Part shown: piece by piece, positions 18,448 through 64,000 of the stretch
Position numbering within the stretch: the stretch's first letter is position 1
How the letters are laid out: every line of letters starts with the position of its first letter
From: Bdellovibrionales bacterium
GTDB lineage: Bacteria; Bdellovibrionota; Bdellovibrionia; Bdellovibrionales; UBA1609
Reading direction: 5' to 3'
Assembly: GCA_965199825.1 (NCBI GenBank)
Contig: OZ241329.1
Location: 1,184,001 to 1,248,000 of the forward strand
Length of the DNA stretch: 64,000 bases
Translations under genes and position numbers: made by a program
The notes under the pieces: model-generated
Told to the model about the DNA's origin: nothing
Databases searched by the model: none
The model's input: the letters and a program-made list of their open reading frames with translations, nothing else

Positions 18448-18933
18448 TTGTCGTGCCCGCTCAAGGTGTCGTGCCCGCTCATGTTGTCGTGCCCGCTCAT
18501 GTTGTCGTGCCCGCTCATGTTGTCGTGCCCGCTCAAAGTGTCGTGCCCGCTCAAAGTGTCGTGCCCACTCAAAGTGTCGTGCCCGCTCAAGGTGTCGTGC
18601 CCACTCAAAGTGTCGTGCCCGCTCAAGGTGTCGTGCCCGCTCAAAGTGTCGTGCCCACTCAAAGTGTCGTGCCCGCTCAAAGTGTCGTGCCCGCTCAAAG
18701 TGTCGTGCCCGCTCAAAGTGTCGTGCCCACTCAAAGTGTCGTGCCCGCTCAAAGTGTCGTGCCCGCTCAAAGTGTCGTGCCCGCTCAAAGTGTCGTGCCC
18801 GCTCAAAGTGTCGTGCCCGCTCAAAGTGTCGTGCCCGCTCAAAGTGTCGTGCCCGCTCAAAGTGTCGTGCCCGCTCAAAGTGTCGTGCCCGCTCAAAGTG
18901 TCGTGCCCGCTCAAAGTGTCGTACCCGCTGACT
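18448..18933. repeat. 18-bp tandem repeat array, 27 units, consensus GTGTCGTGCCCGCTCAAA
   Basis: Directly visible: 26 near-perfect units plus one degenerate terminal unit; no spacers. Confidence 0.98.
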
Positions 18934-19248
18934 CCAGATAAAATCCTGAACCAAAACTAAACACCTCCGGAGTTTGCAAAAATACTCAAGAATCACTTTC
19001 AGTAAGACGTGCGAAGTGCGTGTCACCACAAATTCTTTAAATTAATATTGACGCGTTTTTGCAGCTTCGGGAGCAGGACTTATTTGGTCACTATTGAATC
19101 AGGGGTCTTCAAAGCTCAATCTGCGGATATAACCTGGTCCAAATCAAAATAACCCACCGTAATTTTCAAAATAAAAATCACACGTGCTCGTTCAAAAAAT
19201 CAAAATAAATAACCCATGATATACTTCTTCTTTAAACAGGAGAAGTTT

Positions 19249-20067
19249 ATGGATCATTCTAAAATTCATTTCCAAGCAGTAACGGCTGCGGCCAACCACC
19301 GCAAAACAGAAATGGATTTACTTAACGCTTTAGAAATCGTATGGCGAAATAAAACGTATTATGAGTTTGGGTGCCAATCTTTGTTTGAATATTCAACCCA
19401 ACAACTTAAATTATCTGATGAGCTCGCGAGCATCTTTAATAAACTAGCAAAAAAATTTATTGAAGTGCCTGAACTTAAAACTCACATTGCATCAGGTGAA
19501 ATTTCAATTTCAAAGGGCAATCGAGTTTGCAGTGTGATCACCCCAGAAAATGCCGAAGAATGGCTGGCGAAAGCCAAAGGTACAAAACGAAATCTTGAAA
19601 AGGAAATCGCGAAAGCACAACCTGAAAAGGCAATCCCTGAGCGGGCACGATATCGTAAAGCAGGCGACACCGTTAGAATTCAAATTTCTTACTCTGTCAC
19701 CGAAGACGAATTTAAAGAGCTCGAAAGAGCAAAAGATTTAATGAGCCAAAAATTAGGTCGAACGGCCACAACCAACGATGTTTGTGTGCGAGCGGTAAAA
19801 ACACTCTTACAAAAAATAGATCCGCTCGAAAAGTCGTGCCTGGTTCAAACTGCGGGCACGATCAACTTAACCGTAAAACTAAAACGGAAAGTTCATCACA
19901 ATCACAATAGCCAGTGCACTTACCGAGATGAAAGTGGCAAGCGCTGCACTCAGCGGCGTCACCTTGATATCCATCACATCACCCCGACATCACTAGGTGG
20001 TACCAACGACGAAAACAATCTCACAATTTTTTGTTCGGGACATCATCGTGCCCACCACCGCCATTAG
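19249..20067 (+). CDS. HNH endonuclease with a DUF222-like N-terminal region
   Basis: C-terminal QC...RC...LDIHHI.P...GG.N..NNL...CSGHH zinc-HNH; N-terminal G..SLFEY....L.LS and GEISISK; AGGAG SD before ATG 19249. Confidence 0.88.
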   Translation: MDHSKIHFQAVTAAANHRKTEMDLLNALEIVWRNKTYYEFGCQSLFEYSTQQLKLSDELASIFNKLAKKFIEVPELKTHIASGEISISKGNRVCSVITPENAEEWLAKAKGTKRNLEKEIAKAQPEKAIPERARYRKAGDTVRIQISYSVTEDEFKELERAKDLMSQKLGRTATTNDVCVRAVKTLLQKIDPLEKSCLVQTAGTINLTVKLKRKVHHNHNSQCTYRDESGKRCTQRRHLDIHHITPTSLGGTNDENNLTIFCSGHHRAHHRH

Positions 20068-59436: not shown

Positions 59437-60003
59437 ATGAAACAGCTTTCTCTATTCGAATTCAAATCTAAAACTTCTCATGGAGGAAAGATCAATTTCG
59501 GTCGGCGAAAGTGTGCCAGACCTTTAGATAAAAATCGCATCCAACACGTCGTGATGAGATCTCAACATGCAAAGGGCGAGAGGAGCTTTAGGAATTTTAA
59601 ATTAAAAGTTGAGCTTGAAAATCTAATTCGCGACAAAGCTCAACGATATGGAATACGTATTGCCGAACTCAGCAACGTTGGAAATCATTTTCACATCCTA
59701 ATCCGTTTTCAAAATCGGCAACTGCTCAAAACATTTTTTAAGGTCACGATGGGGCTGATCGCACGCCTTGTTACCAAAGCTCAAAAAGGCAAACCATTTG
59801 GTCGATTTTGGGATGGAATTGTATTCACCCGAATTGTTTCAAAGGGACGAGATGAAGCACGGATGCGTGATTATTTGTACGCCAACAAAATTGAGGCTGA
59901 AGAGGGTGGATATTCTCGAAATCGGTTTGAGAGCGAAACTAAAAAGTTTTGGAGGGGACGGCAAAAGACGAGACGATCACACACAATGGAATTTGGCAGC
60001 TGA
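59437..60003 (+). mobile_element. RAYT/IS200-like Y1 (HUH) transposase, intact
   Basis: MKQLSLF...HGG...RPL...HVVMRS, HUH (NHFHI), FW...FTRIV, catalytic-Tyr-like YLYAN. Confidence 0.82.
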
Positions 60004-62121: not shown

Positions 62122-63730
62122 CCAATTTTTTATCCAAATATTCATCATAAGTTTCATCGCTCACCAAAAGTTGATGACGATCAAGTTCAAAAACTCGGGT
62201 GGTAATGGCTCTTAGAAAATGACGATCATGGCTGACCACCATAATGGTTCCATTAAAAGTTTTTAAGGCTTCGAGCAAAACTTCGCGAGACTGAATATCA
62301 AGGTGATTGGTGGGCTCGTCGAACACCAAAAAATTAACCGGCTTTGCCAAAATTGTGGCGAGCACCACCCGCGATTTTTCGCCACCACTTAAGATCGAAA
62401 TTTTTTTGTCGACCTCATCACCCGAAAAGCGAAAGGCACCAAGTAACGTGCGCACCATTCCAACCGAGGCATTGGGAATGCGGCTTGAGACCTCTTCGAC
62501 AATGGTGAGCTTGGGATCAAGCACATCCATCGAATTTTGCGAAAAATATCCAAGCTCAATGCTTGCACCTAAGTTGAGAACGCCTTCAGTCGGATCGGTA
62601 AAGCCCGCGATCATTTTAAGAAGAGTCGATTTTCCAGCACCGTTGACTCCGACCACCGCCACTCGATCAAGCCGCTTGACGAGGGCTGTTGCTCCTTGAA
62701 ACACCAACTTTTCATTTTCATCGGTGGACCAAACTTTTTTGAGGTTTTCAAATTTGACCACCTCATCACCCCCGCGTGGGGGCTCGGGCCAAACAAATTG
62801 CATCGTTTTTTCTTCAGTAGGAATTTCGATGCGATCAATTTTTTCTAATTTTTTAACACGCGATTGAACCTGTGCTGCGTGCGAGGCGCGGGCGGCAAAG
62901 CGCGAGATAAATTCTTCTTCTTTCGCAAGCATATCGTCTTGTCGTTTTGCCGCCGAAATCAATTGCTCGCGCCGCACCTGGCGCTCGCGCACGTAGTAAT
63001 CATAATTGCCAGAGTAAACCGTAATCGTGCCATGACTGAGCTCAACAATTTTGTTGACCAAACGATTCATAAATTCGCGATCATGACTCGTCATCAGGAG
63101 CGCGCCCTTGTAAGCCCGAATCCAAGTCTCAAGCCAAAGGATCGATTCAAGATCGAGATGGTTTGTGGGCTCATCCATCAAAAGGACATCAGGGTTAAGC
63201 GCCAAAATTTTTGCCAGAGCAATTCGCATTTTCCAACCGCCACTAAAACTTTCGGTGGGGCGGTGATAATCGTCGGGACCAATTCCTAATCCAGTGAGGA
63301 TCTCGGCCACACGCGATTCAAGATCATAACCGCCCAGTCGCTCAAACTCTTCTTGAAGTTCTCCGTATTGATCAATGGCCTTAGTCATCTCTATTTCAGA
63401 AAGTTCGGTCGCCAGCTTTTGTTCGACATCGCGAAGTCGGGTTGAAACTTCGGCAATACGACCAGCTGCCGACTTGACCTCTTCAAAAGCACTTCGGCCC
63501 CTAAGGTCTTCGATATTTTGGGCAAAGTAACCCACCGTGATGCGATCGGGTTTGGTGACTTGACCTTCATCAACGGTTTGCTCGCCAGTAATCAATCGAA
63601 AGATCGTGGTTTTACCCGCGCCATTTGGACCAACCAGCCCAATTTTTTCGCCCGTGTTGATCTGAAACGACCCGTTTTTAAAAAGCAGTTTGTTGCCGTA
63701 GTGTTTGCTAATGTTGGAGAGATGAATCAT
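62105..63730 (-). CDS. ABC-F family ATPase
   Basis: Two ABC domains (GPNGAGKT/FSGGW, GVNGAGKS/LSGGE), DEPTNHLD twice, no TM; start at ATG 63730. Confidence 0.93.
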   Translation of the reverse strand: MIHLSNISKHYGNKLLFKNGSFQINTGEKIGLVGPNGAGKTTIFRLITGEQTVDEGQVTKPDRITVGYFAQNIEDLRGRSAFEEVKSAAGRIAEVSTRLRDVEQKLATELSEIEMTKAIDQYGELQEEFERLGGYDLESRVAEILTGLGIGPDDYHRPTESFSGGWKMRIALAKILALNPDVLLMDEPTNHLDLESILWLETWIRAYKGALLMTSHDREFMNRLVNKIVELSHGTITVYSGNYDYYVRERQVRREQLISAAKRQDDMLAKEEEFISRFAARASHAAQVQSRVKKLEKIDRIEIPTEEKTMQFVWPEPPRGGDEVVKFENLKKVWSTDENEKLVFQGATALVKRLDRVAVVGVNGAGKSTLLKMIAGFTDPTEGVLNLGASIELGYFSQNSMDVLDPKLTIVEEVSSRIPNASVGMVRTLLGAFRFSGDEVDKKISILSGGEKSRVVLATILAKPVNFLVFDEPTNHLDIQSREVLLEALKTFNGTIMVVSHDRHFLRAITTRVFELDRHQLLVSDETYDEYLDKKLASPNT

Positions 63731-64000
63731 GTGAGCTTTTATCTCGAAAAGTGGGTGTGGGTGCAATCTTATTTTAATATAAATAAAATATGTTTTTGTA
63801 GTTGGGGGTGGGCTGGCAACTTTGTTTCAGCAGTCGACTCTCCAAAATTTGGTATTGGTGTTTTCAGCGGGCACGATCAGTATTTCACCTCAACCTTAGT
63901 GCATCTGCCTTTCCATTTGATGGTGGGCACGATGATGTCCTGAGCAAAGCAAAGTCAGATTTTCAATAGCATCTGTGCCACCTTCCGATTTTGGAATCAA

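Follow-up and report, generated by a model that had tools for sequence, protein, structure and literature searches.

A multicopy HNH nuclease gene family linked to its own short DNA sites in Bdellovibrionota: a candidate selfish element

Twenty-seven diverged copies of an HNH nuclease gene were found under purifying selection in the genome of a Bdellovibrionales bacterium, each with a short DNA site upstream and inside the gene. The in-gene copies of this motif are constrained at the DNA level, and the link between site and gene is kept from locus to locus. As the copies here share one word and related genes in other bacteria each have a different one, the protein likely binds its own word and probably spreads word and gene. 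On balance we favor the view that the family is a selfish, multicopy nuclease element that binds its own site, and that nicking would drive the spread of site and gene. Listings of the open-access literature gave no published description of this HNH family.

The analysis was centered on a 64-kb window (64,000 nucleotides), whose features are given in Table 1.

Table 1. Features of the window.
Position	Strand	Feature	Basis
18448..18933	+	Head-to-tail array of 27 x 18 bp, each unit a half-site TCGTGCCC(G/A)C plus spacer	Sequence, TRF
19048..19060	+	TTGAC-N3-T5 box, left anchor of the fixed-length upstream region	25/27 paralogues; 38 relative loci in 15 genomes
19048..19225	+	Spacer of fixed length between TTGAC and the extended -10; mean identity ~38%, with A/T tracts ~50 bp apart	Paralogue and relative comparison
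19217..19225	+	Putative extended -10-like promoter box TGnTATACT, from the consensus	Sequence; conserved in paralogues
19238..19242	+	Ribosome-binding site AGGAG	Sequence; paralogues
19249..20067	+	272-aa gene with ParB-type HTH domain, ribbon-helix-helix and HNH; one of 27 paralogues	Profile searches, predicted structure
19249..19623	+	Residues 1-125, predicted ParB/KorB/Spo0J-type DNA-binding domain without CTPase domain	VIA, Foldseek, HTH_ParB
19638..19650	+	In-gene site 1, TGAGCGGGCACGA, reads GGGCACGA; codons E-R-A-R	Kept in 18/26 paralogues
19669..19824	+	Residues ~141-192, predicted ribbon-helix-helix, likely dimerisation domain	AlphaFold model, VIA
19833..19861	.	Linker sites: GTCGTGCC at 19833-19840 (7/8 core bases, SCP-type remnant) and GCGGGCACGA at 19852-19861 (AGT-type)	Sequence, paralogue comparison
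19855..20064	+	HNH nuclease domain	PF01844 E 4e-5; McrA Z 7.3; conservation
20046..20053	-	In-gene site 4, TCGTGCCC; codons H-R-A-H	Kept in 24/26 paralogues
63110..64000	-	Part of a second paralogue, broken by an internal TAG: its 3' end and the flank beyond, with the motif at 63869 and at 63925	Homology, motif count

The array and the motif copies in the window

The array is intergenic. 15/27 of its units are exactly GTGTCGTGCCCGCTCAAA and the others are 7 minor variants; TRF reported 26.7 copies with 96% matches. The number 27 is the unit count as assembled, and the right edge of the array and the gene are covered by contigs from two public runs of one study. The end of the array lies 315 bp from the real start codon at 19249. 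The ATG at 19216 selected by the ORF finder was rejected as the start, since it lies inside the promoter. At its other end the gene has a stop codon that overlaps the stop of a convergent neighbor (20064-20067), with no terminator between them.

The initial annotation had reported this array of 27 copies of an 18-bp unit some 315 bp upstream of an HNH gene, and an exact 13-bp copy of the unit within the gene. Both were found as claimed, as was its conclusion that the array is not a CRISPR: the repeats are not separated by unique spacers. The 8-mer GGGCACGA occurs 31 times in the window versus 1.37 times expected from shuffles. 26 copies are in the array, 3 are in this HNH gene, and 2 are beside the second paralogue at the window end. 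Three copies in the gene had been judged unlikely to occur by chance, and at the background rate the probability of three such 8-mers within 819 bp is indeed ~2e-6. The copy designated site 4 had been overlooked.

The HNH paralogues and constraint on the in-gene sites

The 2.84-Mb genome contains 27 HNH loci, of which the others are 50-78% identical to this gene, along with a lone HNH fragment. 25/27 loci read through to the final HNH residues. Among the paralogues the median dN/dS is 0.12 with a dS of ~1.9, a result that holds in all three domains (0.13 in the HNH domain). Many paralogues have in-frame TAGs, and read-through of these was considered and rejected; the TAGs are upstream of the true start. 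The loci are scattered, with a slight preference for the origin; 19/27 are within 600 kb of C1:964354 and 964917, where two perfect parS-like palindromes lie close to the minimum of the GC skew.

Codon choice was then compared in 25 paralogues at 93 conserved columns encoding amino acids with four- or six-fold degenerate codons. The median share of the top codon was 0.5. Fixation of a single codon (≥90%) was observed in 5/93 columns, R132, A133, R134, R267 and A268, all of which are motif codons.

The linker of 24/26 paralogues has either an SCP-type or an AGT-type copy, and only this gene has both. The best paralogue partner of this gene switches at the linker from SCP-type to AGT-type, which suggests that the inverted pair in this copy is likely a recombinant joint and not a designed hairpin. 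The two linker sites are where the initial annotation placed them, but the inverted pair that they form is peculiar to this copy (1/26 paralogues has both). Mosaic breakpoints among the paralogues showed no clear enrichment at internal sites. The spacing from a forward in-gene site to the next reverse site is 191-192 bp in both subtypes, despite the different positions of the pairs.

Distribution of the motif on the chromosome

GGGCACGA has 522 chromosomal copies and is the most over-represented 8-mer. 232/522 copies are inside an HNH paralogue or at most 1 kb from one, and such DNA makes up 2.8% of the chromosome. Upstream copies are present at 27/27 HNH loci, where the coding-strand reading TCGTGCC occurs 159 times and the opposite reading once. 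Isolated copies away from HNH loci and arrays number 74 versus 55-68 expected, which is near chance. Counting the motif by its distance to HNH paralogues, a check put forward in the initial annotation, thus revealed clustering at the paralogues and background elsewhere, not a uniform frequency. There is no replication-strand bias (244/522), the full palindrome is absent from this genome (0 versus 522 half-sites), and close inverted pairs are almost absent genome-wide. In its longer form the motif occurs in 0-15 copies in 59/60 genomes of relatives; the exception, G058, has 55 copies with a control of 22.

High-identity tandem arrays were defined by ≥89% identity, a period of ≥8 and ≥4 copies. 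16/16 such arrays on C1 contain the motif, in units of 16-25 bp. Clusters of at least 5 motif copies number 17, of which 7 precede an HNH gene and 10 are away from HNH genes; only 7/27 HNH loci have one. The array spacers often resemble the sequences found locally to the left and right of a lone site, which local duplication would be expected to produce. The units are short, and their mutations come in blocks, the way slippage leaves them.

These features of the units would also fit a process in which the site-bound protein stalls replication and so causes slippage, the nuclease being uninvolved and the gene spreading by ordinary recombination between sites. The lack of arrays in most relatives with an equally intact HNH agrees with this. 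However, the copies end at the last HNH residues, and an HNH domain under purifying selection needs some function. We consider an uninvolved nuclease unlikely.

A second word, TACCWTCGTTCRC, is 13 bp long and unrelated to the motif. It has ~260-330 copies on C1 that are evenly spread, mostly in coding DNA, without strand bias. It flanks 7/17 motif clusters (chance ~1% per window), this array not among them, so another factor may help seed arrays. It is at the start of only 1/17 Y1 genes.

The Y1/RAYT-like genes form a family with 17 loci on C1 (for example 247000-247536), one of them in the window at 59437-59970. 12/17 have their own co-oriented upstream motif, TGACAYTGCCCC, a layout that is the same as in the HNH family with a different enzyme. 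A six-copy family on C1 (for example at 1289492) encodes proteins of ~308 aa with an N-terminal zinc-ribbon and is probably an IS transposase.

The motif might therefore belong to one of the 17 Y1 transposases or to a host protein, with the HNH loci only collecting it. In addition to the flanking TACCWTCGTTCRC copies, one array group is directly upstream of a Y1 gene (C1:246-247 kb), and the sites of the G034/G263 type resemble the TIRYT consensus GGGG[AT][CG]A[CG] as given in part of PMC6006769. On the other hand, the motif of 12/17 Y1 genes is a different one and the HNH motif is near only 2. Outside the HNH loci and the arrays the HNH motif is also only as frequent as background, and the same holds for 59/60 relatives. 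Sites differ between paralogues of one host and follow the protein tree. Ownership of the motif by another factor is thus very unlikely.

The predicted protein

The AlphaFold model (pLDDT 90) has three parts. For residues 1-125 the top 4 VIA matches were ParB/KorB/Spo0J proteins (Z 6.4-7.3, rmsd 3.7-6.1 over 98-108 residues). The top 10 Foldseek matches were all ParB, none of them significant (E 0.1 or worse), and HTH_ParB matched 30/71 family N-termini. We assigned this domain to the ParB type because several middling scores (Z under 8) agree. A profile of the N-terminus matched only designed helical proteins among the sequences of solved structures. No ParBc or N-terminal CTPase domain was found in 28 family members; the protein starts with a helical domain. 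The ribbon-helix-helix region resembles TraM, PutA, NikR and MazE (VIA Z 4-5). Residues H243, N257, H266 and H270 of the HNH domain are present along with C223, C233, C262 and H265, and with its metal and catalytic residues in place this McrA-like HNH is predicted to be catalytically intact. The ParB-type domain likely binds the site of its own locus.

The gene product had initially been labeled DUF222-like. The DUF222 / 13E12-repeat HNH proteins of Actinobacteria (PF02720) are products of multicopy chromosomal genes and have a helical N-terminus and a C-terminal HNH. The proteins studied here share these three properties; this one is shorter and has no DUF222 match. Nor did any of the 28 full family proteins match, and only 6/71 family N-termini gave weak matches (best E 7e-4) versus 30/71 for HTH_ParB, which leaves the label weak. 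The nearest ESM Atlas clusters are mostly from Bdellovibrionota, and one neighbor cluster is 14% DUF222.

The upstream region

The distance from TTGAC to the extended -10 is 168-171 bp in 25 paralogues; at the 38 relative loci it ranges from 166 to 171 bp. Among homologues there are smaller spacing groups near 175 and 188 bp, and the geometry, with -35-like and extended -10-like boxes, is similar to that of a split promoter. TTGAC was also considered as an IS200/IS605 target motif. This was rejected because close copies share ~35 bp upstream of TTGAC.

IscB/HEARO loci have an HNH gene with a fixed-length 5' region. A region of conserved length upstream of an HNH ORF is common to IscB/HEARO/CRISPR-type RNA-guided HNH systems and the loci studied here, and the array or the fixed-length region could by analogy be an RNA component (a guide, an antitoxin or an OMEGA-like RNA). 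There is a weak similarity to IscB: the IscB model (PLMP, RuvC, HNH) scored 28.8 bits against a cut-off of 175, in the HNH region only. Unlike those systems the element has no RuvC, no structured RNA and no spacers. A conserved fold was not found in the upstream spacer on either strand (mean z -0.3), the upstream region has no Rfam match, the units differ in length (16-42 bp), and most loci lack arrays. The initial annotation had entertained an RNA component; an RNA or guide role is, we feel, scarcely credible.

The sites are found inside the gene and immediately before its conserved promoter region, as they would be if this were a toxic, addiction-like nuclease that represses itself. The sites would then be only operators, with looping between upstream and in-gene copies, and the arrays would be decoys gained by ordinary slippage and retained by the host for soaking up the nuclease from 25 copies. 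The predicted KorB-type fold agrees with self-repression. So do the arrays, which are extreme only where the genome has many near-equivalent copies, and the lack of any full palindrome among the 522 half-sites. However, self-repression leaves both the dispersal to 27 loci and the strict 159:1 orientation of the upstream copies unexplained, there is no adjacent antitoxin gene, and array spacers that resemble the flanks of a single site point to local duplication. Self-repression as the whole explanation seems rather unlikely.

Locus-matched palindromes in relatives

The HNH family was found in 55/251 genomes of the phylum at E 1e-40 or better, often in multiple copies. With E 1e-30 as the limit, 1,713 representatives of it were counted. 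143 relative loci were examined, 133 of them with upstream sequence. Our filter identified a linker or 3' palindrome at 82/133 loci and none at 51/133. Many relative loci have a 16-18-bp palindrome in the linker between the ribbon-helix-helix and the HNH, or at the 3' end, with a second copy 90-430 bp upstream. An upstream copy with ≤2 mismatches is present at 26/82 palindrome-bearing loci, and the other 56/82 have no close upstream copy. In controls the rate of such a match was 0.6% for other-genome pairs (n = 328) and 9.9% for same-genome pairs (n = 404). The proposal that nuclease gene and motif form one unit is upheld by these matched sites in homologues, by the clustering at paralogues and by the fixation of synonymous sites.

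Paralogues within one genome can have different sites, as with L124 and L161 of G139 and the three types in G149. When 57 loci were placed on a tree, the sites tracked supported protein clades from host to host, and one host could have several sites. Part of this pattern is explained by ancestry, and it therefore demonstrates linkage of site and gene, not co-evolution. Six palindromes considered not to be of the linker/upstream kind (L057, L082, L134, L153, L155, L171) were left out of the tree and of the count of 37 distinct sites. In two genomes all exact sites are at HNH genes, 9/9 at the three genes of the complete genome G026 and 5/5 in G263.

The consensus parS, TGTTTCAC-GTGAAACA, and NBS, TATTTCCC-GGGAAATA, are given in part of PMC7383237, where four residues switch the specificity of the ParB-type fold. 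The central hexamer of parS (CACGTG) or NBS (CCCGGG) is present in 14/37 sites, in agreement with the predicted ParB-type fold. No residue-to-base code emerged from the family; mutual information was weak and confounded by ancestry, and L054 and L056 of G048 have the same recognition helix with a different palindrome center. The relatives have palindromes of the 16-bp type and this genome has only half-sites: the motif is one half of the TGCCCGGGCA-class site of G026, G157 and G236.

The initial annotation had suggested a search of homologous loci for motif-matched repeats. Matched palindromes were found upstream and in the gene, but they are single, and short arrays were not found at the relatives' loci. 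Of the outcomes that it had named as refuting, neither homologous loci devoid of matched sites nor a uniform genome-wide motif frequency was observed. Site-anchored tandem repeats were seen in only 1/20 genomes of relatives, G026, with units of 107-123 bp. Given these single palindromes, the 7/27 loci with a cluster and the 10 clusters away from HNH genes, the array is not an obligatory part of the locus. Identity around the locus palindromes stops at 16-20 bp, with no flank copied along with the palindrome. Upstream of L162 (G139:C10, locus 2600-2945) are modules of 100-160 bp with the locus palindrome that recur widely in G139 and are possibly non-autonomous elements. The relatives also have a second, more distant multicopy HNH class (L060-L062, L067-L070, L094-L110), some with their own repeated words.

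Unit boundaries and mobility

Copies that are 92-96% identical at distant loci share only the region from about -220 to the last codons. Beyond it the flanks and even the C-terminal tails differ; in G139 the 3' end is the same. Homology among the copies ends 5-20 bp after in-gene site 4. Comparison with congeners twice showed the gene missing next to a shared flank. Only one of the two congeners retained both flanking genes, with no HNH gene between them, and neither comparison yielded a junction. No base-level empty site was found, and G139 has no congener. Terminal (inverted) repeats, a target duplication or a transposase were not seen at the ends of near-identical copies. Phage and plasmid collections gave no match with tblastn, and a metagenome scan produced only 4 distant loci.

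A model for the element and its relation to known systems

In the model that we favor, a selfish nuclease element, the N-terminal ParB/KorB-type HTH domain would read the site as ParB reads parS, and the ribbon-helix-helix would dimerise. In relatives the dimer may bind the full 16-18-bp palindrome, and this lineage would use only the half-site. The tethered HNH would nick near the site. Repair at the nick could duplicate a window of 16-25 bp around the site, which slippage would extend into arrays, and rarer events would copy the whole 1-kb gene unit elsewhere. The upstream and in-gene sites are likely also operators that keep the nuclease low. Two steps have analogies, and these are analogies only. 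According to part of PMC3592412, an HNH domain joined to a DNA-binding module makes its nicks at a fixed offset, and for BIMEs part of PMC3333891 gives nick-primed amplification as the proposed model.

The closest comparison is with REPtrons (TnpA(REP)/RAYT with REP and BIME), in which, as portrayed in parts of PMC3333891, PMC8266576 and PMC6006769, a nuclease gene is likewise flanked by its own lineage-specific short word that also forms intergenic tandem clusters. The enzyme of REPtrons is HUH/Y1, whereas this one is HNH with no Y1 by Pfam and NCBIfam. A REP is a palindrome of 20-50 nt after a GTAG-like tetranucleotide, paired in inverted BIMEs, in the account given in part of PMC8266576. 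The HNH element instead has head-to-tail half-sites with no GTAG-plus-hairpin unit, its site is inside coding sequence, the gene itself is multicopy, and recognition is predicted to be of double-stranded DNA by an HTH. The RAYT-like comparison made in the initial annotation therefore holds as an analogy, with double-strand binding of the ParB type the more likely mode of recognition.

The predicted DNA-binding fold and the 16-18-bp palindromes of relatives are like those of ParB-parS, Noc-NBS and KorB-operator (part of PMC7383237; PDB 6s6h, 8qa8, 1r71, 6y93). Unlike parABS/Noc, the element has no N-terminal CTPase domain and an added HNH, the neighbors of this copy are not parA, and the loci are dispersed. 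It also has dozens of copies with at least 37 different sites, and the parS-like pair of the host is elsewhere, at C1:964 kb. Selfish spread is plausible by comparison with free-standing HNH homing/nicking endonucleases, in which a zinc-binding HNH can nick beside a fused DNA-binding domain (part of PMC3592412). Homing enzymes cut alleles without the element, whereas in the present case the element keeps its presumed site and has it multiplied at its own locus. The HNH element works like a REPtron yet has neither the enzyme nor the repeat of one, and where this can be tested it also differs from parABS, CRISPR, OMEGA and insertion sequences.

A broader proposal is that these are phylum-wide, transposase-free mobile elements that combine a ParB domain with an HNH. 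Each copy would carry and rewrite a parS-like address, with dozens of specificities, and the switch to a half-site in this genome would generate nearly all tandem repeats of the host. We put this forward tentatively, as a possibility somewhat short of probable.

The analysis offers a concrete, testable function for a large anonymous protein family. If true, the model would add to REP/RAYT a second way for a nuclease to multiply its own repeats, one that differs in chemistry and in recognition, and it would explain all the high-identity tandem arrays of this chromosome. The locus-matched palindromes, at least 37 in number, are a natural experiment in how the specificity of the ParB fold diversifies, a question addressed until now mostly with the ParB/Noc pair. 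They might supply orthogonal DNA-binding pairs or compact site-specific nickases, and if the ParB-HNH reading is true the family would be a natural collection of site-tethered nickases and of ParB domains with their matched sites.
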